Shown piece after piece: positions 737 to 10,800 of a stretch of 64,000 nucleotides of DNA. The DNA comes from a phage, in assembly GCA_018015315.1 (NCBI GenBank), contig GCA_018015315.1_3629.1; one strand, written 5' to 3'. The notes beneath the pieces are model-generated. The model saw only the letters and a list, made by a program, of their open reading frames with translations, was not told the DNA's origin and ran no database searches. Both the position numbers and the translations under genes were made by a program. Position 1 is the first letter of the stretch. Each line of letters opens with the position of its first letter.

Positions 737-1780
737 TTGATGTTGACATCTATTGAAACAATTGATACGATTTCTTCACTTACAGAGCACGAGAGACAAC
801 TCATGAATCTTGAAAAATATTATACACCAGAAGAGTTAGAGCGCCTGCTCAAAAAATATAGACGCAAACAGAATAATGCACGGAAACGAGATATAGAGTT
901 CGACCTGTCATGGGAAGAATACCTCCTATTTGGTAAAAAACTTTTAGGAGATGGAGTATGCGACTATACCCTTATACCTTTTGACATGCACACAGATGAA
1001 AACGGGCTGGGAAATCCTTTCTACCCATCTCTGGAGCGGATAGATGATGAAGGTCCTTATGCGGTTGATAACTGTTGTGTAGTGGGATTGAGATGCAACT
1101 CTCTAAAGGACTGTCTGGTAGATAAAAAGACTGCAGTCTTGATTAAAGACGAAACTGATCGAAAAATTGTCCAGCAGATGATGCTCCACCTGAGCGAAGA
1201 GCGTATGGAGAAATTGAAAGGTGATTATACTTTTGAAGATTTCATCTTGCAATATGGAACGGAAGAGGATAAACTAGCACTCTTTGACGAAGAAGAGGAG
1301 GAAGATATGCTACCGATGTCTAAAGTTACTTATCGTGCACCCAAGAAGCACATTTCCGACATTGTAAACGAGCCTATCACAGAAGAGATTGAAGAAATGA
1401 CGCAACAGGTGCATGAAGAGGAAAAAGAGACTCAGGAGGTCGAAGAGGAGCTTACAGAAGAGGTTCCTGCACTACCTGATGATGTTGAGATTGCCAAAGC
1501 TTACACTTTCTATTGTCAAACGTTCTACGATGTAGGTATGAAAGTTGATCTGTCGTTCAGCCAATTTAAGAGTTCGTATATTCGCAAATGCTGTGCTTTA
1601 ACTGGTGAACGTCTTGGAGCTGGACTTAAACCCCTGTTGGTGACCGACTGGAATAAAGGTTTCACTAAAGGAAACTTTATGGTAGTATCTCCAATTATGG
1701 AGAAAGCTATGACAGATCTTATGAAGACCACCCGCATGACAATGACCGAGTTGGCAGGTATTTTCAAACACGTTAAATAA
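737..1780 (+). CDS. hypothetical protein with an internally duplicated Cys-containing domain and acidic linker
   Basis: 347-aa ORF; N-terminal segment (FDLSWEEY...GVCDYT) and C-terminal segment (VDLSFSQF...KCCALTGE) look like two copies of one domain, separated by an E/D-rich stretch. Exact start uncertain. Confidence 0.5.
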   Translation: MMLTSIETIDTISSLTEHERQLMNLEKYYTPEELERLLKKYRRKQNNARKRDIEFDLSWEEYLLFGKKLLGDGVCDYTLIPFDMHTDENGLGNPFYPSLERIDDEGPYAVDNCCVVGLRCNSLKDCLVDKKTAVLIKDETDRKIVQQMMLHLSEERMEKLKGDYTFEDFILQYGTEEDKLALFDEEEEEDMLPMSKVTYRAPKKHISDIVNEPITEEIEEMTQQVHEEEKETQEVEEELTEEVPALPDDVEIAKAYTFYCQTFYDVGMKVDLSFSQFKSSYIRKCCALTGERLGAGLKPLLVTDWNKGFTKGNFMVVSPIMEKAMTDLMKTTRMTMTELAGIFKHVK

Positions 1781-1792
1781 TGACAGGGGCCA

Positions 1793-3274
1793 ATGGCCCC
1801 TTCTGGAGTTTTAATGGATATCAGAAGTTCAGAAATCATTGCCTCACAAAAAGATGATGCCCTGAGAATGTTGCAGGCTGCACGTATGTATCTCCTTGAA
1901 AAGCTGCCGTTTTATGGCACACTGCTGTCAGGATTGCAGTTCGTAGAAAACCATACATGGTGCTCCACCATGGCAACCGACCATAAACGCATCTATTACA
2001 GTCCTGAGTTCATTATGGGGTTGGCTGATGAACGTAAGGCTATTCTTAAGGCTTCTCTAACTGACGAGCAGTTTGAGATGGCTGAGGTTTTCTATTCCCC
2101 CAAATCTGTGAAAGAGGTGGCCTTTCTTCTGTCGCATGAGGTGGGGCATATTATCTGTGATCACCTGGTCCGTGGTAAAAGCTTTGAGCCGGAACTGTTC
2201 AATATTGCTTGTGATCACGTTATCAACACAGGACTTGTGGTTGACTTTAGCAAGCCTCCTTGTGTTTTCTTCCCGAAGGGGAAAAGCACTACGTTCGTGA
2301 AAGGTAAGCCTTTTGGCTTCTTAGCCAGCTGCTACTGCGATATGAAGTTTCATGGATGGATTGCTGAGAACGTTTATGCAGTTCTTGATAAGCAAAGAGA
2401 TCAGAATAACGGTAAAAGTAAGAACGGTAAAGGTGAGAACTCTCAAGGTGATAAGCGACAAACAGATGATCACATGAGTGGGAACGGTGGCACCAGTGAT
2501 GATCTTGGAAAAGCTATAGGGTATGATCAGCCACAACCTGTAATCAGCCAATCTGATAAAGATCAGGCCATGCAGGACTCTGGTGATATGCTGGAGGCAG
2601 CAATGCAAGCGTCCGGAGGCCGTTGCCCCGAGGCGGTGCGTGAGTTTGTCAAGAACAGAGGTAAGCCTGTAATCAACTATATAGACATCATTAAGCAACG
2701 CATGTTGTCTAAACGAAAGGCTGAACTGACCTACAGAAAACCTGGTCGCCGATCTGGGTCTTTGACCAGCACAATGCGAAAAGTTGGGGCTATAAACAAG
2801 AACCAGCACGTTATTGTTCCTGGTCGTAATCCGGAAAACACTATAGATATTGTGGTGGCTTTAGACGTTTCTGGCTCGATCTCTCAAAGAACTTTAAAGA
2901 AAATGTTCAATGAAATCACCGGATTGTGCAATCTGTATAAAGAGTTTAAGGTTACAATGTTCTGTTGGTCAACTGAGGTTGGAGAGGTTAAAGTATACAC
3001 TCGCGGCAACATAGACGAGATGATTAACTATGAGGTCCACTCAACATGGGGCACAACAGCTGCTTGCGTGTTCGAGTATCTGGATGCCAACATACCGAAT
3101 GCAAAAGATGTCATCGTCCTGACCGACCTATACTTTGAGCATAACTTTGAACAAAAGGTTGTTGACAACAAGTGGAAAAAGTACGATACTTTATGGGTTC
3201 TAACCGAAGGGTATAATAAAAATTATATCCCGAGCTTTGGGAAAACTGTGGAATTAATCGAGTACGCTAAGTAA
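1793..3274 (+). CDS. putative Zn-metallopeptidase / von Willebrand A domain protein
   Basis: HExxH motif (SHEVGHIICDH) in the N-terminal half; vWA MIDAS-like motif DxSGS (LDVSGSIS) in the C-terminal half; 493 aa. Confidence 0.7.
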   Translation: MAPSGVLMDIRSSEIIASQKDDALRMLQAARMYLLEKLPFYGTLLSGLQFVENHTWCSTMATDHKRIYYSPEFIMGLADERKAILKASLTDEQFEMAEVFYSPKSVKEVAFLLSHEVGHIICDHLVRGKSFEPELFNIACDHVINTGLVVDFSKPPCVFFPKGKSTTFVKGKPFGFLASCYCDMKFHGWIAENVYAVLDKQRDQNNGKSKNGKGENSQGDKRQTDDHMSGNGGTSDDLGKAIGYDQPQPVISQSDKDQAMQDSGDMLEAAMQASGGRCPEAVREFVKNRGKPVINYIDIIKQRMLSKRKAELTYRKPGRRSGSLTSTMRKVGAINKNQHVIVPGRNPENTIDIVVALDVSGSISQRTLKKMFNEITGLCNLYKEFKVTMFCWSTEVGEVKVYTRGNIDEMINYEVHSTWGTTAACVFEYLDANIPNAKDVIVLTDLYFEHNFEQKVVDNKWKKYDTLWVLTEGYNKNYIPSFGKTVELIEYAK

Positions 3275-3289
3275 GAGAGGAGGTTATTT

Positions 3290-3553
3290 ATGGCAACAGA
3301 GTTAAAATTTGCATCAAACCGTAAAACTAAGAAGTATCTGTCCTCAGTAGCTCCAGGCACTGTGGTGATGTTTGTTGATGAACTTGGGGATGTGAATACA
3401 GCACTTGTTGTAAAATCACATCCTGCAAACATATATGTTGGGGTATTTGACCTGTTCAGAAAGGTGTTTGTAGAACTACCTCACAGTTTGGTTGTTACAG
3501 AAATGGATGCCTGCATAGAAATTCTTGGCGAAGTTATGGTGGAGGAACAATAA
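3290..3553 (+). CDS. small hypothetical protein, paralog 1 of a tandem array of four
   Basis: 87 aa; GAGGAGG RBS upstream; shares size and motifs (GTVV..., V.E.D..I.ILGE) with the next three ORFs. Confidence 0.6.
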   Translation: MATELKFASNRKTKKYLSSVAPGTVVMFVDELGDVNTALVVKSHPANIYVGVFDLFRKVFVELPHSLVVTEMDACIEILGEVMVEEQ

Positions 3554-3819
3554 TGGCTACTAGCATTGTATTCAATTCTAAGGTGAAGAACAAAAAGCGT
3601 GCAGACAGTTTTCCGTGTGGGACCGTGGTAAGTTGCGACGGAGACGGCATTCAAAACATAGTTATGATTGTCAAAACAGGAGAACATTGTGTGTGGGGGT
3701 TCGATTTAGAAAATAATGAGTTGTACGATCTGCCGCCAAACATGAAAGTTACAGAGCTTGACACCAAAATTACCATCCTTGGAGAGGCAAGCTATTCAAA
3801 AGAAGGAGGAGAACAATGA
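3553..3819 (+). CDS. small hypothetical protein, paralog 2
   Basis: 88 aa; start overlaps the previous stop (ATAATGG); same motifs as paralog 1. Confidence 0.6.
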   Translation: MATSIVFNSKVKNKKRADSFPCGTVVSCDGDGIQNIVMIVKTGEHCVWGFDLENNELYDLPPNMKVTELDTKITILGEASYSKEGGEQ

Positions 3820-4079
3820 CCACAAAAATCACTATCGCAGAACCGAAAGCTAACACTCAACCTATCGAAAAGTTTAAGTGCGGTGAGGTGGTAACATTCA
3901 CACCAGATAATGAAGATGCTAAGATTTTCGCAATGGTCACAGCTGAGTGGATGTGTGACAACACCACACAGGTTCTGCGTTTTGACACCTATCTTACCGA
4001 CGAAATCAGGAACGACAAGATCGTGACTGGTGTGGATACTGAGATTGTTTTCTACAAGAGCTTTTTAGAGGGTTTCTGA
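3816..4079 (+). CDS. small hypothetical protein, paralog 3
   Basis: 87 aa; ATGA start/stop overlap with paralog 2; CGEVV motif in the same position. Confidence 0.55.
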   Translation: MTTKITIAEPKANTQPIEKFKCGEVVTFTPDNEDAKIFAMVTAEWMCDNTTQVLRFDTYLTDEIRNDKIVTGVDTEIVFYKSFLEGF

Positions 4080-4080
4080 T

Positions 4081-4314
4081 ATGGCAAAAATTCGTAAATT
4101 ATCCAGCAATCAGGTTGTGAAAGACTTTGAATCTGGAGAGATTCTGTATGTTCGTGATGCAGATGACGAATGTGAAGATCTTGTTATGTTGGTGGGGCAC
4201 GCTGAGGACGGATGCATCCAAGCTGTTTTTCTTGAAACAGCTATGGTGCACTGGATAGAGCTGGACCTGAAAGCACGAAAACCTAAAGCAGAAATCCTGA
4301 TTTACGAAGATTAA
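4081..4314 (+). CDS. small hypothetical protein, paralog 4 (more diverged)
   Basis: 77 aa; similar size and acidic character, weaker similarity to the other three. Confidence 0.5.
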   Translation: MAKIRKLSSNQVVKDFESGEILYVRDADDECEDLVMLVGHAEDGCIQAVFLETAMVHWIELDLKARKPKAEILIYED

Positions 4315-4330
4315 CAAAAAGGAGAGAGCC

Positions 4331-4780
4331 GTGTTGAGCAAACGTGAATGCGACAGCATTAGCCTGAATTCTTATAAGAAACAATGGTTTGGAGTGGAAG
4401 TTTGCCGACTGCGGCTAGGCTCCTACCTGAACTTCGTTTATTATGAAAGCGATAGTCGTATCGTTTCTTATGAAGTGTTCTACACTAAGAACACCTTCGA
4501 ACTGCGCCGTAAAGTGGATGGTGGGAGAACTACCCCCCAGAATAATTGGGAAACTATCCTACCTACAGATGTTATAGGAAGTCCACTGAATGTATCTGAA
4601 GATGAAAATCTTATGGTTCATGCTATGATGGGACTTGACAGCTTAGAGCTGGCGATCTATGATATGTCCATCGAAGCAGTTAAGCTGGACTACATCGAAA
4701 ACACTTTAGAGGAAGGTATCAAGAAGTTTCTCAGTGAGAAATTAAAAGACCACTTTCATAAGGAGCTATACCTGTTATGA
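4331..4780 (+). CDS. hypothetical protein
   Basis: 149-aa ORF, GTG start with AAGGAGAGAG RBS; same strand and tight spacing as neighbours. Confidence 0.5.
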   Translation: MLSKRECDSISLNSYKKQWFGVEVCRLRLGSYLNFVYYESDSRIVSYEVFYTKNTFELRRKVDGGRTTPQNNWETILPTDVIGSPLNVSEDENLMVHAMMGLDSLELAIYDMSIEAVKLDYIENTLEEGIKKFLSEKLKDHFHKELYLL

Positions 4781-5022
4781 AGACCCGTAAAGAACGTAAC
4801 AAAATTTTACCTGGAGCTCTAGAACACCTGATGAAGTGCAGATCTATTTGGCACTCTGCCAAGGAAGGGCAGAAGGTGGTTGTGGTTAGTGACAATACCA
4901 ACCCGTTTGGAGATTATACCACTATGATGGCCCCGTATGTCCGTGATGGTGTTGTGGAAGTGGTCCCTTACAACGGTCTGCATGAACGGCACTTTGAAAG
5001 CACTTTGCTAGTGGAGCTATAG
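4777..5022 (+). CDS. hypothetical protein
   Basis: 81-aa ORF with start/stop overlap to the upstream gene. Confidence 0.45.
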   Translation: MKTRKERNKILPGALEHLMKCRSIWHSAKEGQKVVVVSDNTNPFGDYTTMMAPYVRDGVVEVVPYNGLHERHFESTLLVEL

Positions 5023-5024
5023 TC

Positions 5025-5591
5025 ATGGCGGTCAATGTGGCTTACAACACAGGAAAGCTTGACAGAGACATTGGGTGTCTTGTCCTTTCAGATACAGAAG
5101 AGTATTGGGGTTATGGGTTGCTGTCAGACCCACACCCGAGCAACCTTGTATCAACAGTGCTATACCGCTACGACCCTGTGCCAACGGTACACGACAAAGA
5201 CATTCACGACCTCCGGATCAAGTGTCTGGAAGATCTGCTGAACAATGGTTGCAACGATCTGCGGGTAGCCAAAGAGAAGCTTACAAACATTCACAAAGAG
5301 GAAGTGATGAGCACCCTCAGTAAGAGATCAGTGCACAAAAAGATGATGCTGAACTTTGCAATGGGTATCTACATGGACGGGTATAAGGGAGGTGATCCGA
5401 TTCTCAAGCTTCGCTGCCCAACACTGTGGGAAAGAGTGGTTGACAGTAAGGACGGTACTGCCCTGCTTGAGCTACACACTGCAGGTTGGATTTGGAGGTA
5501 TGTGGACGGATACCCTCTGTGGGCATGTGGACCTGGGGAATTTGTTGACAGACCTAGCGCGGTGGTGGACTTACTATTGCAGTTTGAATAA
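5025..5591 (+). CDS. hypothetical protein
   Basis: 188-aa ORF in the operon frame series; shorter overlapping ORFs in other frames judged spurious. Confidence 0.5.
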   Translation: MAVNVAYNTGKLDRDIGCLVLSDTEEYWGYGLLSDPHPSNLVSTVLYRYDPVPTVHDKDIHDLRIKCLEDLLNNGCNDLRVAKEKLTNIHKEEVMSTLSKRSVHKKMMLNFAMGIYMDGYKGGDPILKLRCPTLWERVVDSKDGTALLELHTAGWIWRYVDGYPLWACGPGEFVDRPSAVVDLLLQFE

Positions 5592-5648
5592 AAAGGTGAG
5601 TTATAAGGTATTCATACACCTACCAACAATACAACAGGAGAGACTGAG

Positions 5649-5924
5649 ATGACGAAAGAAGAGGCCGACGTATTAGATTTTGCACTAGAGGCTACGCAGG
5701 AGGCTTTGGTGTTAGCTTGGAAAATGAACCAGCGTGCTGCAGAATGCAACCGCCGCATCAATGAGATTCTGGGCATGTCCATGTATGATTTCACTATGCA
5801 TGCTGGAGAGATTCCTGAATTAACTGCAGAGATGAATGATCTTGACAATAAGATTAATATCATTCTGAAGACAGCAGAAACAACTCACCAAACCGCCCGT
5901 AAATTTATCAACGAGAAGGTGTGA
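5649..5924 (+). CDS. hypothetical protein
   Basis: 91-aa ORF; AGGAGAGA RBS upstream. Confidence 0.5.
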   Translation: MTKEEADVLDFALEATQEALVLAWKMNQRAAECNRRINEILGMSMYDFTMHAGEIPELTAEMNDLDNKINIILKTAETTHQTARKFINEKV

Positions 5925-6400
5925 ATATGGACTACAGCTACTGCGGGGAAGAAGTTCCTTTTAACTACAGCAATCTTACCACGAGCAATCCATATGAGAC
6001 TCGCCACGGCACACACATCATTGCCATTGACTTTGATGGAACGTTTAATGCGAGCCCTTTCATCTTCTCCCGCCTGATCAGGGATCTGAAGAAGGAGAGG
6101 TGGACAGTCTACCTTGTGACTTCTCGGTTCATCACTCAAGACAACGTGGACATTGAATATTGGCGCAAGGAGCTTGATGTTGGGGTGTTTTATACTGGCG
6201 GTGTTCAGAAGGCAGCCTACCTGGCGCAGTTTGATATCTACCCAGATATCTGGATTGATGATTCTCCGGCATGTATTCCGGCTAAAAATCAGTTAGAGTT
6301 TGCAATGAAGGAGATTGAGTACAAGTCTGATGCTAAGCGGAACGGATGGCCCTTTATTATTGAAGATTACCCAGACCCTGAGCCGGAGAAAGAGCCATGA
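5921..6400 (+). CDS. HAD-superfamily phosphatase (putative nucleotidase or 3'-phosphatase)
   Basis: HAD motif I DxDGT (IAIDFDGTF), motif II (VYLVTSR), motif IV (IWIDDS); 159 aa. Confidence 0.65.
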   Translation: MNMDYSYCGEEVPFNYSNLTTSNPYETRHGTHIIAIDFDGTFNASPFIFSRLIRDLKKERWTVYLVTSRFITQDNVDIEYWRKELDVGVFYTGGVQKAAYLAQFDIYPDIWIDDSPACIPAKNQLEFAMKEIEYKSDAKRNGWPFIIEDYPDPEPEKEP

Positions 6401-6567
6401 AACGAAGATATCATTACCTGATGTGGAAGTTATATCATGGTGCTGCTAAAGCTTACCGCACCGTGTTTAGCAATGACAATCACTGCATTATGTTACACCT
6501 TACCGCCATTAAACATCACAATGAGTGGATTCGTGCAATCGTGATAGGTGACAAAGACTTTAAGTAA
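6397..6567 (+). CDS. small hypothetical protein (56 aa)
   Basis: ATG overlaps the stop of the HAD gene (ATGA); open to TAA at 6565-6567; below the track size cutoff. Confidence 0.3.
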   Translation: MKRRYHYLMWKLYHGAAKAYRTVFSNDNHCIMLHLTAIKHHNEWIRAIVIGDKDFK

Positions 6568-6618: not shown

Positions 6619-6999
6619 ATGTGCAAGTGTAAATCATATAATTGGAAAGTGAAAGGTGCCAAGCATCCAAATGTTATCGTTGATGTGCCTAAAAAGCTCC
6701 GTGACGGCAAAAAACGTGTGTGCCTTGATAAGTGCATGGCTAAACCTATCATGAGTCTATGGGCGGCAGGATTGAAAACTCTAAACTGCTGCTGTGGTCA
6801 TAACAAAGATGTTCCAAGCATCATTATCCCAGAAGATGCAGATCCTAAAGCTTATGCCAAAATACTGACCCGCTATCCCAGCACCTTCCTGATCGGAAAA
6901 TGGTGTCACGATGAACTTCAATGGTGGATAGCCTATGGTAGTATAGGCACTACTTTTGGCTTCCCAGCTTTGTCAGAGCGCTATGTCAAAGTGTCATAA
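6619..6999 (+). CDS. Cys-rich hypothetical protein (possible Zn-binding)
   Basis: 126-aa ORF with CKCK, CLDKC and CCCGH cysteine clusters. Confidence 0.5.
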   Translation: MCKCKSYNWKVKGAKHPNVIVDVPKKLRDGKKRVCLDKCMAKPIMSLWAAGLKTLNCCCGHNKDVPSIIIPEDADPKAYAKILTRYPSTFLIGKWCHDELQWWIAYGSIGTTFGFPALSERYVKVS

Positions 7000-7007
7000 T
7001 AGAATTT

Positions 7008-7028
7008 AAGGCCTCAAACGAGGCCTGT
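7008..7028 (+). terminator. putative hairpin terminator after the 6619..6999 gene
   Basis: AGGCCTC-AAAC-GAGGCCT perfect 7-bp stem; downstream T-tract is weak. Confidence 0.35.
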
Positions 7029-7103
7029 GCCTTCATAAATTGCCCCACCCTATGTGATTGCCTTCCTGAAACAAACACCCTCTTAAATCGCTTAAAATTA
7101 AGC

Positions 7104-7132
7104 TTGACATCAACGCAGAATTTTTATATGAT
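7104..7132 (+). promoter_or_regulatory. sigma70-like promoter
   Basis: TTGACA (7104-7109), 17-bp spacer, TATGAT (7127-7132); about 30 bp upstream of the 7163 start. Confidence 0.55.
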
Positions 7133-7162
7133 TATCCCACCAACCAAGCAGAGGAGACTGTC

Positions 7163-7570
7163 ATGGATAATCTTACAAATATAAAAGTCGAAATTGTTAA
7201 GCTAAAATTCTTAGGCTTTCGAGACCCCAGCTCTATAACAGCTATAATCATGGATACCCATTTTACAGCAGGCAAGGAATACACTGCCGTCCGTTATACT
7301 TGCGGGGATCATAAATCTGCCTACAGTGTTAATACAAACCTCGGTGAGGGATATTTTATCCGTGATATTACGGATCATTTGTGGGGAATGTGGGAGTTGG
7401 TGAAGGAAGAGGGTAACTCACTCCCCAAAGAGATTTGGGTGCATACCTTCCACACAGGTAAGTTTGGAGGCACGGAACATAAATCTATTCACTACGATGA
7501 AGAAAGCGCCCTCAAGCAACAAGCTGTTCTTGGCGGGTCTGTAGAAAAATTTATTAAATGCGAGGACTGA
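7163..7570 (+). CDS. hypothetical protein
   Basis: 135-aa ORF downstream of the promoter; AGAGGAG RBS. Confidence 0.55.
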   Translation: MDNLTNIKVEIVKLKFLGFRDPSSITAIIMDTHFTAGKEYTAVRYTCGDHKSAYSVNTNLGEGYFIRDITDHLWGMWELVKEEGNSLPKEIWVHTFHTGKFGGTEHKSIHYDEESALKQQAVLGGSVEKFIKCED

Positions 7571-7573
7571 TAA

Positions 7574-7774
7574 ATGGCTGATTTTTGTAAAGACTGTTCT
7601 GAAGAGTTGTTTGGTCACGATTGCGGAGATCTGGAAGGACTAATCACAGAAGATCAGTGGAAGGAAGGTTATGCAGCACCTGTTATCTGCGAAGGTTGCG
7701 GCTATATCTACGTTGACCACAAAGGTAAACGCGTCCAGCCGTCTGAAGATGGGTCGTGTTGGGAATATTATTAA
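7574..7774 (+). CDS. small Zn-ribbon-like protein
   Basis: 66 aa with CxxC...CxxC (CKDC, CEGC). Confidence 0.5.
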   Translation: MADFCKDCSEELFGHDCGDLEGLITEDQWKEGYAAPVICEGCGYIYVDHKGKRVQPSEDGSCWEYY

Positions 7775-7786
7775 TTATAAAAAGAA

Positions 7787-7810
7787 AGGGGCCGTTTGGC
7801 CCCTTTTTAT
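7787..7810. terminator. bidirectional rho-independent terminator between convergent genes
   Basis: AGGGGCC-GTTT-GGCCCCT stem flanked by A-tract on one side and T-tract on the other, so a U-run follows the hairpin on both strands. Confidence 0.7.
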
Positions 7811-7820
7811 TTACCCTCCG

Positions 7821-10800
7821 TTAACGAGAGAAAGTTGCATAAGCTTCAAGATCATACTGCTGATCACCAGGAAGCATGGCACCTATGGAGCCAAACCCCA
7901 TGACCCTGCCTTCTACTGCCAACTGCAGTCTGAACCCTACCCATCCGGAACTTCTTGCAGCCTCGATGTTATCGCTATACCCGAAAGTAGCAAGCTCGTC
8001 AACTCCAGATCCGAACAGCAACTGGATCTGATTTCTCGGAAGCCCTATAATTTCAGGAATATATGCTCCGAAGTACACCATTTGCCCTACTTTAGGACCG
8101 CTGCCATACTCCATCGGTCTGCTTGCAGAGAAAGTCTTCATTCCTGAAGTCCCTGCCGGATTTGGGTATGCCCCGTTTGTTGCTCTGCCTATCCACATTC
8201 TCCACTGTGGTGTCATCTGTTTGACAGTGAAAGATGTTGAAGACGTCTTGCGGCCTGCATCATCCGTAACTACAAACGTTATGTTGACATTACCGGGCGC
8301 TTTAAATGTTACCAGTCCTGTGTTAGCATCAACAGTTGCTATGCCAGTATTACTACTTTCCCAAGTCTTTCTGATCCCTGTTACGTTGGAAGGGGTGATA
8401 GAGGGTTCCTGCATCTGCAGTTTACCGCCAACAATACCTATGCCATTGCCAGGGTTATACAACACCCCAACCTCATCTACAATATTCCCAGCCTTGAGGC
8501 TGTATTTTCTTGAGAAGTTGTAGGTTCCGTTATAAGTATGTGTCCCTGAGAATGTGACATCGGCCTTGCCGTGGGAGATGCAAACCAAAGCATACTTCCT
8601 GTCAGGCAATGTAGCCCCGGTCTCTGGGTGAGTTTTACCCACTTGGAACACGCCAGGATCGGTAGAGTCGTGGCTATCCCTGATAGAGCTTGGACCACCC
8701 ATTAACTGAGACAAGCAATCCCTTACCCACGTCCAGTTATTATCACTGGAGAAGTCAACAGTCAAATCAAACACAACCCACTCGTTAGGCTTCCAAACAG
8801 GTGTTGTAATAGACTTGCCTACGCCACCACCCTGAAGGGTAGATGACTGCTCAGTGATCAATGCTGCATAAGCCAAAGTCCCTAAACGCAAGGTCTGGCT
8901 TGCGGTTCTCACCACCTTAGAATCGGCATCTGTGAAGTTGTTGATAACCTGGAAGGTGCCATAAGTGTTTTTACAGGTGATTCTTGCATTCAGTGTGTCA
9001 ATCTTTCTCACATCTGCCATGGCAGTGTTAGACACAGAGAAGTCAGAAGCTTTGGCTGAGTTTGCTGCAACAACCGGAACAACGTTAAGAGTTGCGTTGA
9101 ACTGGCAAGCAGGAGTAACCAGCAGCCTGTTATCACCTATTTGCTTCCATGAAACACTTTGAACAGGTAGATTCCATTTGATACCTGAGAAAACTTTAGC
9201 AACCCTTGGTCCCAGAGCTCCAGTCCTGTTGTCTTTACAACACATAGACATGGTGATCGTTGACGGAGTGGCCTGACCAAACAATTGCTGTGCTTTTGCA
9301 GAAGACATGGTGTAGAAATTGTCCTTAACAAACTCATCAGCTGCTAACGATCCGTCAGATTTCCACCACTGCACCTGATACCCTGTCTTATCCCAGCCCC
9401 CAACCTGCTTCAAGTCTTCCCAAGAGATTTCCAGATCTCCCGTGGTAGGATTGATTGCAGCAGTCCCTGGTGTGCCGGATGACCACAATGGAATATCGAA
9501 CCACGCTGGTTTAACAGATTGCACTGCGTTAGGACCTATTGCAGCAGCAAGTTGTTGGCCCATCAATACGCGAGCATCTTTTACCAGACCCCACTCAATC
9601 ATGGATCCAGAGTAACCTTCTTTCTTGTAGGCCGAGGATCCGTTTAAGTGGATAAGTCTGCTTGTGCCGAAGTTATACGCTCCACCACCGTTGTCGTCTG
9701 CAAAGTTGTACACAATTCTATCCCTGGTGTCTTTCCACGCTCTACCACCTATTTCATAGTTGTGGTCATAGCAACGTTGCAGTGTTGTCCAGCAAATGAT
9801 AGCCATCCTTCTGCCATTGCTGAAGCCGAAGGCATTATCGTTAAGCTCTCTCCACAAATAGCAGTTGGTAGTCCACATGGCTCTGTGGATGTTAAACCAG
9901 TTGACAGATCTTGCAGCATTGTTGTAGTCGGTTCCCTCTAGAGTAGGCCACACTGCATTAACCAGCATGTCTTCTGTCCCCGCATCCATCAGGAATCCTC
10001 TTACCTTTTTACCCATTCCTACTCTGTCTTTAGCAATCCAGCTGCCAAACAGTCTCAGTTTGGGGCCAATAACAGTTTCCTCCGGATGCTCAAGAGAAAC
10101 ATATTTCAAGTGTACTGTAGGATCACCATAGGTGCCATCGCAGACACTTTTGTGCATGTTTTCACCAAGGTCCAGACGAATACCTGTAAGAGTTTTTGTG
10201 TTGTCTGTGAGTTTGTCTGTCAAGTCAAACTCATACCACCACCATCCAGCACCTAACAATACCTTCTTACAACGCTGTGCATCTGTATCAGATATTCTCT
10301 TATCCCCTGCAAAAGGCGAATCTGCAAATTGGTAGTGCAGAGCAATTTCAAACGGGTGTGTTGATGTTCCGTTTTCAGCAGGAACTTGCTTACCTATCAG
10401 GTCGCACTTAATGATCATCACGACACGTCTGTATCCATTGGCTACCGGAACGTCGAACGGATACTTCTCTCCGTTCATATTTGCATGGACAGACGAGAAG
10501 ACTATATACGGGTCAACAGCATTACCCAGGGTTTCAGGACCAGGGATCATTTTGTATTTCTTGACTTGCCCCATAATATAGTCGCTGCCATAGGTTGCAG
10601 CCTCGAAGCAAGATCCCCCGTTAGGTAGTTCCCCCGGACCCCAGAAAAATGCGCCATAACAGTTATAAAACCACTTGTTAGGGTCGTATTTGTTCTTGAA
10701 GGTCTGAACCTCGTTGGCCTGTTTTGTCAAGAAAACCTGCGTATCTGTGAAGATTGCAGGGTTTACTCTCGCCTGACGCGGAGGGTAACCTGTAGTCTGG

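Follow-up and report, generated by a model that had tools for sequence, protein, structure and literature searches.

Do the four small genes that follow one another at 3290-4314 of the analyzed DNA belong to one family, and what could such an array do for the phage that carries it? The window, that is, the whole stretch of 64,000 nucleotides that was analyzed, comes from a Vequintavirus, an rV5-like E. coli myovirus, and its bases 1700-6500 are 97-98% identical to isim, Murica and many other phages. A preliminary description of this DNA had reported four consecutive, translationally coupled ORFs and taken them for paralogs that arose by repeated local duplication and divergence, of a kind that often encodes host-takeover or anti-defence proteins under diversifying selection. 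The four ORFs were found exactly where it had placed them, all on the + strand, overlapping or abutting one another and encoding 77-88 aa:

3290-3553, + strand: W1, 87 aa, slot-1a paralog, phrog_10698, acidic, pI 5.0
3553-3819, + strand: W2, 88 aa, slot-1b paralog, phrog_10698, predicted SH3-like beta-barrel
3816-4079, + strand: W3, 87 aa, distant paralog, phrog_12861, genus core gene, very strongly constrained
4081-4314, + strand: W4, 77 aa, most diverged paralog, phrog_12046, acidic, net charge -8

The same four genes were called by the GenBank annotators, all of them as 'hypothetical protein', and they are considered real genes because dN/dS was 0.01-0.11 in this frame. At the W1/W2 junction stop and start overlap by 1 nt (TAATG), at W2/W3 by 4 nt (ATGA), and W3 and W4 are separated by a gap of 1 nt between stop and start (TGAtATG). 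The starts of W2, W3 and W4 each have a Shine-Dalgarno of their own, which was read from the sequence within the preceding gene:

3275..3283, + strand: Shine-Dalgarno of W1, GAGAGGAGG, 6 nt before the ATG, with an RBS annotated at the same place in Murica
3541..3545, + strand: W2 Shine-Dalgarno GGAGG, located in the 3' end of W1, from the sequence and the Murica RBS annotation
3803..3809, + strand: W3 Shine-Dalgarno AAGGAGG, located in the 3' end of W2, read from the sequence
4067..4072, + strand: W4 Shine-Dalgarno AGAGGG, located in the 3' end of W3, from the sequence and the Murica RBS annotation

Overlapping or abutting frames with internal Shine-Dalgarnos are compatible with translational coupling, and the stop/start overlaps fit the coupling proposed earlier.

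The relationship between the four proteins was analyzed at increasing depth. By default pairwise BLASTP, W1 and W2 were aligned (40% identity, E=1e-12), and no alignment was obtained for the other five of the six pairs, all of them involving W3 or W4; profiles were therefore needed to test the 'shared motifs' of the preliminary description. Homologs were gathered from a collection of 5.8 billion proteins and alignments were built for each family. The slot-1 family and the W3 family were joined by hhalign at a probability of 89.9% and E=1.7e-6, the alignment extending over 79 columns in collinear order. Using the slot-1 HMM, W3 was the sole other match among the 401 window ORFs (E=4.6e-5), with a score that none of 2000 W3 shuffles reached. 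W4 was tested with a profile of 14 family sequences from which W4 sequences had been excluded, and it scored 22.1 bits (E=2.6e-6), the next window ORF being at E=0.34; the score was reached by 0 of 5000 shuffles, the best of which had 10.5. The same profile was aligned to 69 of the 77 residues of W4 by hhalign (86.4%, E=4.7e-6). Taken singly, the slot-1 family and the W3 family gave no direct link to W4 (hhalign probability of about 2%). P0044, a single-copy distant homolog, bridges the W3 and W4 types, because it was the top match for both the W3-only and the W4-only HMMs. No further family members were detected in the 64-kb window, where no other ORF scored better than E=0.3.

In the PHROGs database, W1 and W2 belong over their full length to phrog_10698, W3 to phrog_12861 and W4 to phrog_12046, with E=1e-40 to 1e-62 (8e-43 for W1). 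These are kept there as three separate families, all of 'unknown function'; whereas PHROGs has them unrelated, the profile and fold evidence unites them here in one superfamily. As judged from the sequences, the similarity between all members was significant, collinear and nearly full-length, which confirmed W1-W4 as true, very diverged copies within one superfamily. The proposed paralogy was upheld by the pairwise comparisons, with homology above chance for all four genes at very different depths, visible to BLASTP for W1-W2 and to profiles for W3 and W4.

Structure prediction gave a compatible result. The AlphaFold (AF2) models of W2 and W4, both of moderate confidence and the latter with a low-confidence C-terminus, were predicted as SH3-like (Tudor/KOW/Sm-class) barrels with matching strand order and the same PDB fold class (16 shared chains). 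The modelled fold is the small, five-stranded, strongly bent antiparallel beta-barrel of about 50-60 residues, it occupies the whole chain in both models of these 77-88 aa proteins, and an N-terminal helix is absent. All family members are acidic (pI 4.2-5.7, net charge -1 to -9). Among the PDB matches to the models, the protein-binding barrels of the Tudor, PWWP and BAH types outscored Sm; the likeness to Tudor/PWWP/BAH/KOW barrels is at the level of the fold only (4-17% identity), and the family differs from them by extra N- and C-terminal strands. Sequence searches of Pfam, NCBIfam, PADLOC and the PDB matched no library model or solved structure, and the sub-threshold hits (Kelch_HCF, aSelB_III, paraoxonase and LpxD) were discarded as noise. 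Proteins of about 72-87 aa from N4-like phages and Kuravirus (e.g., N4 gp21, in BFVD) have the same predicted barrel, with TM 0.6-0.75 to the W2 model, at a Foldseek E of only 1e-2 to 1e-3 and an identity of 12-22%. As in the window, these are small proteins of lytic phages, and a DUF2201 (N4 gp25-like) gene is present in the N4-like phages.

To determine the distribution of the family, 1.84 billion representative proteins were scanned exhaustively with HMMER, and seven matches were produced. One was spurious: in P0045, a 994-aa repeat protein, only a 16-residue motif was matched, eight times. The family thus appears to be essentially restricted to Vequintavirus, apart from a small number of metagenomic relatives. 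The relatives were compared using the conserved gene upstream as an anchor:

1793-3274: DUF2201 metallopeptidase/VWA gene, directly upstream of the array

Between this gene and a 149-aa gene, 0, 1, 3 or 4 copies were found depending on the genome. No copy is present in Seunavirus (GAP31), in Mydovirus (Mydo, AV124) or in Certrevirus (CR8). What follows the DUF2201 gene in these genera is a homolog of the 149-aa gene or some other gene outside the family, and the next gene directly abuts it in GAP31, Mydo and AV124. The ORFs of the DUF2201 loci of these three genera gave no match to the family HMMs, and the 86-aa genes that adjoin DUF2201 in Seunavirus and Mydovirus, being unmatched, were rejected as members. 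L004, a 123-kb metagenomic contig, has one copy, P0044, among neighbours that are fully syntenic and 45-67% identical. Three copies are found in rV5 (gp014, gp015 and gp016), and four in the window and in a diverged lineage, L016-L018. Copy number therefore differs at the same syntenic position. Parsimony suggests that one copy was gained and then expanded; the single copy of L004 could also be the result of loss, or the array could have been assembled from separately acquired homologs. Local duplication with divergence, as proposed before, was supported by the homology of the genes and by their varying number among relatives, cassette exchange being also involved.

Solo copies occur elsewhere: L007 has a gp014-like gene, P0043, and L019-L021 have a W3-like one. 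These solo members (neighbours at L007 1621-2052 and L019 2558-2986) directly adjoin homologs of the window ORF 6619-6999, a 126-aa gene located 2.3 kb downstream of the array, and this adjacency may be a recurrent association or merely shuffled synteny. In L004, an IS605 OrfB/TnpB-like gene (Cas12f1-like_TNB) was observed at 2119-3258, just upstream of the operon, together with two tandem homologs (6938-7531 and 7577-8128) of the 188-aa gene of the window (5025-5591), which are another local duplication in the same operon.

The variation within Vequintavirus is concentrated in what we call slot 1. Since a scan of IMG/VR gave two loci only, the population was surveyed by tblastn on the GenBank phages. 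Of 118 Vequintavirus records, 44 have the W1+W2 pair and 74 a single gp014-type gene, with no intermediates; W1 was found at an identity of at least 90% in 44 of the 118. W1, W2 and gp014 are about 40% identical to each other, an identity too low to tell whether gp014 arose by recombination between W1 and W2. The blastn homology between the window and rV5 stops at 3304, 14 nt into W1, and resumes at 3805, 11 nt before the start of W3 and inside its Shine-Dalgarno, with about 95% identity on both sides. The segment in between was defined as follows:

3305..3804, + strand: exchangeable slot-1 cassette, W1+W2 minus 15 nt at the beginning of W1 and 15 nt at the end of W2

This 500-bp two-gene cassette is replaced in rV5, as in 73 other genomes, by about 230 bp with one gp014-type gene, and the swap is bounded exactly by gene edges. 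Both haplotypes were detected within the ICTV species APECc02 (JeffSchatz single, MaxTheCat pair) and murica (Pr121LW single, Murica pair). The W1/W2 pair must be old, because recognisable orthologs of W1 (58% identical) and W2 (66-70% identical) are present in the L016 lineage.

Two further observations were made in these comparisons. The 3' half of W3 (window 3939-4058) has 85% nucleotide identity to rV5 within surroundings of 95-100%; nearly all of the changes are synonymous, the W3 protein being 98.9% identical, and the dS of W3 between the window and rV5 is 0.48 vs 0.03-0.26 in neighbouring genes. This segment is a second small mosaic patch adjoining the slot-1 cassette. In addition, 16 of the GenBank records that carry the locus are named 'Campylobacter phage', with C. 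jejuni as the host in 15, among them MG065635, MG065644, MG065647, MG065654, MG065655, MG065658, MG065659, MG065661, MG065662, MG065666, MG065672, MG065674, MG065682 and MG065690. Their family proteins are about 97-99% identical to those of the E. coli Vequintavirus phages, and the host labels look doubtful, by contamination or mislabelling.

Selection on the array was assessed by pairwise Nei-Gojobori dN/dS within allele classes. The values were about 0.01 for W3, 0.03-0.11 for W4 and 0-0.10 for gp014, compared with 0-0.10 for the neighbouring genes. W3 and W4 are present in all 118 Vequintavirus records, and W3 is at least 95% identical in 117 of them. In L016, W3 is 97.7% and W4 93.5% identical, vs 37-82% for the flanking proteins, and the dS of W3/W4 is only 0.5-0.6, while the flanks are saturated at synonymous sites; therefore, the W3-W4 block must be strongly constrained and have been shared more recently than its flanks. 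By these comparisons, W3 and W4 are among the most conserved proteins of the locus. The diversifying selection that the preliminary description had assumed was not supported, because dN/dS was as low as in the neighbours (0.01-0.11) and W3/W4 are highly conserved. The pattern points instead to purifying selection and cassette exchange, and the variation is a whole-gene swap of old alleles at slot 1, not an ongoing diversification by point mutation.

In rV5, genes 11-26 have been described as one unit transcribed from sigma70-type promoters, with bidirectional promoters that lie between gene 10 and gene 11; paralogy is not mentioned in that work, and gp14-16 are not among the virion proteins listed in its main text (PMC3606486). 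A consensus scan of the window, which as a whole was not enriched over shuffles, gave a site whose position agrees with these promoters:

743..771, + strand: candidate sigma70-type promoter, TTGACA-17-TACGAT with TG extension, 10/12 consensus matches

We infer that this would be the promoter of the operon to which the array belongs, and the array plausibly lies in the early region. Neither Vequintavirus transcriptomes nor an earlier mention of the paralogy of W1-W4 were found in the literature.

Several annotations in this operon deserve comment. For the Srd-like anti-sigma gene, two genes upstream of the array, the mechanical ORF begins at 737, whereas a start near 803 follows from the annotation of Murica; because the best promoter-like site (743-771) falls between these positions, the shorter model of the gene is the likelier one. 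A GC-rich perfect palindrome, AGGGGCCAATGGCCCCT, is located at 1785-1801 between the Srd-like and DUF2201 genes; it is annotated as a terminator in Murica, yet the operon continues, and the palindrome might act as an attenuator or as a site of processing. Where the window has one DUF2201 gene, the rV5 RefSeq record has two overlapping CDSs, gp012 and gp013 (L002 757-2218); the gene is continuous in the window, Murica and the BASEL phages, and the split is likely a frameshift or sequencing error in the record. The DUF2201 gene and the 149-aa gene at 4331-4780 appear to be mis-annotated under their RefSeq/PHROG names, 'HNH endonuclease' and 'tail protein', respectively.

Functional data are available from a HIDEN-SEQ preprint, in which transposon insertions were mapped in Bas54, a Vequintavirus with the three-gene layout (10.1101/2025.11.20.689424). 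The gene lengths and order of Bas54 are the same as in Bas55 JeffSchatz. The three array genes bas54_0054, bas54_0053 and bas54_0052, presumably the orthologs of gp014, W3 and W4 in that order, were classed as 'Non-essential' on K-12, with 17/17, 13/15 and 12/12 TA sites hit, and their log2FC on the clinical isolate CFE311 was +0.46, +0.33 and -1.32, none of these changes being significant (q=0.68 to 1.0) (10.1101/2025.11.20.689424). Since the orthologs could be dispensed with on K-12 and showed no significant depletion on CFE311, the array is regarded as accessory; this functional comparison covers K-12 and one other host, CFE311, and redundancy between paralogs could hide phenotypes. On CFE311, which carries DS-28, the Bas54 DUF2201 gene was depleted (log2FC -2.20, q=0.009), as was the MoxR ATPase gene bas54_0063 (log2FC -7.23, q<0.01), which is needed against the DS-28 defence system (10.1101/2025.11.20.689424). 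The latter gene is about 5 kb from the array, on the opposite strand, and was located in the compared loci as follows:

L001 1279-2463 and L022 1779-2963, - strand: MoxR ATPase gene, upstream of the array

The MoxR and DUF2201/VWA genes are probably a MoxR-VWA pair with an anti-defence role. In the version of Extended Data Table 8 of the preprint that was analyzed (sheets S6 and S7), the sheet for K-12 versus CFE303 repeats both the header and the numbers of the CFE311 sheet (10.1101/2025.11.20.689424).

Taken together, we favour the reading, with a probability of roughly 0.55, that the array is a duplicated, recombining family of early protein-binding adaptors or inhibitors. The members of this family are small (77-88 aa), acidic and soluble, each with one domain that is predicted to be an SH3-like beta-barrel; their genes would be transcribed together with the Srd-like and DUF2201 (VWA/metallopeptidase) genes upstream, and the reading frames from which they are translated overlap or abut. 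Local duplication would have raised the copy number from zero or one to three or four, and homologous recombination would reshuffle the array at conserved edges of the genes, formed on one side by the start codon with an N-terminal MAT and on the other by the tail that encodes the Shine-Dalgarno. Slot 1 holds two old exchangeable haplotypes, with W3 and W4 fixed in the genus and strongly constrained. The proteins would be non-enzymatic adaptors or inhibitors that bind other proteins and are made early in infection, W3 and W4 binding invariant partners and the slot-1 alleles a host-variable one, and partial redundancy would explain the lack of single-gene phenotypes. Non-enzymatic protein binding is the most likely mode because of the size, fold class and charge of the proteins and the lack of catalytic motifs, and acidic protein-binding adaptors are our best guess.

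An array of anti-defence genes, with every paralog inhibiting another immune system of the host and with an arms race that keeps the locus under diversifying selection, seems unlikely. Accessory, non-essential genes in a probable early operon would suit it, as would the conditional requirement for the nearby MoxR ATPase and adjacent DUF2201 genes of Bas54 on the DS-28-carrying CFE311, and a slot-1 dimorphism within species is expected if the target differs among hosts. However, positive selection was not seen within allele classes (dN/dS 0.01-0.11), and W3 and W4 are nearly invariant over 118 genomes and the lineage with saturated flanks, which argues for conserved targets. The three Bas54 orthologs were not significantly depleted on CFE311, a weak test with one non-K-12 host, and similarity to any library model is lacking.

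It is rather doubtful that the proteins are new phage Tudor-like host-takeover factors, with W3/W4 acting on invariant host machinery and slot 1 as a balanced polymorphism. RNA polymerase would be one candidate target of W3/W4, because the C-terminal Tudor domain of bacterial UvrD/PcrA binds RNA polymerase and the Srd-like anti-sigma gene lies two genes upstream. If this were true, the alternative slot-1 cassettes would correspond to different variants of a host factor or of a defence system, and slot 1 would be a swappable host-range or counter-defence module.

W1-W4 could also be accessory subunits, adaptors or substrates of the MoxR ATPase/DUF2201 VWA-metallopeptidase machinery, which we consider improbable. 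A family member lies 11-16 nt downstream of DUF2201 in the window+rV5, L004 and L016 lineages, and a W3-like gene about 2 kb upstream of DUF2201 in L019, but inherited synteny can explain this adjacency. Moreover, the sister genera keep DUF2201 without any family member, no DUF2201 gene is found within 1.3 kb of P0043, and the DUF2201 and MoxR genes of Bas54 were depleted on CFE311 whereas the array genes were not.

A role as RNA chaperones was considered through the closest published analog of W1-W4, the T4 proteins GoF and MotB.1 together with Frd.2, which are LSm-like (SH3-topology) early proteins, non-essential in the laboratory (PMC12152347). The two sets have in common small SH3/Sm-class barrels, the presence in one genome of several paralogs that have diverged beyond the reach of BLASTP, dispensability in the laboratory and a position in the region near rIIA and srd. 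In contrast, the T4 proteins (GoF 141 aa, MotB.1 119 aa) have an extra C-terminal domain (119-141 aa in all) and are dispersed, whereas W1-W4 are single-domain (77-88 aa), strictly tandem and acidic, and the architecture of a barrel followed by a variable C-terminal domain was not found in them. Comparison with T4 GoF and MotB.1, by the family HMM and by hhalign, gave a probability of 0.1-0.4% (E 0.16-0.66). The Sm/LSm (Hfq-like) arrangement of an N-terminal alpha-helix and a barrel with basic or aromatic RNA faces is not seen either, because the models have no such helix and all members are acidic. T4 Dmd was rejected as a relative: its HMM E=0.008 among 245 ORFs was matched in score by 8 of 5000 shuffles, hhalign gave 0.5%, and the sub-family HMMs did not see it. 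Nothing at W1-W4 points to RNA, unlike the T4 set, and an RNA chaperone is improbable given net charges of -1 to -9 that are unfavourable for RNA binding, the missing N-terminal helix, the better scores of Tudor/PWWP/BAH than of Sm barrels and the lack of sequence relation to GoF or MotB.1 (hhalign <1%).

Finally, that only W1 and W2 are paralogous, and W3 and W4 unrelated small genes with chance motifs, is most improbable and already largely refuted, since the blank BLASTP result for five of six pairs, the split into three PHROGs families and the direct hhalign value of about 2% for W4 are set against profile matches with independent controls and collinear, nearly full-length alignments, the top rank of P0044 with both the W3-only and W4-only HMMs, the fold class shared by the W2 and W4 models and the absence of any other window ORF near these scores.

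The W1-W4 array is an ordinary kind of phage accessory locus, and what can be gained from it will stay limited as long as neither a target nor a phenotype turns up. Three PHROG families of 'unknown function' are merged here into one superfamily with a predicted fold, and the array offers a clean natural case of phage accessory genes that multiply and are exchanged as gene-sized cassettes. The nearly invariant W3 and W4, together with the dimorphic slot 1, are concrete targets for the search for partners in Vequintavirus, a genus now under genome-wide genetics in the BASEL phage collection.
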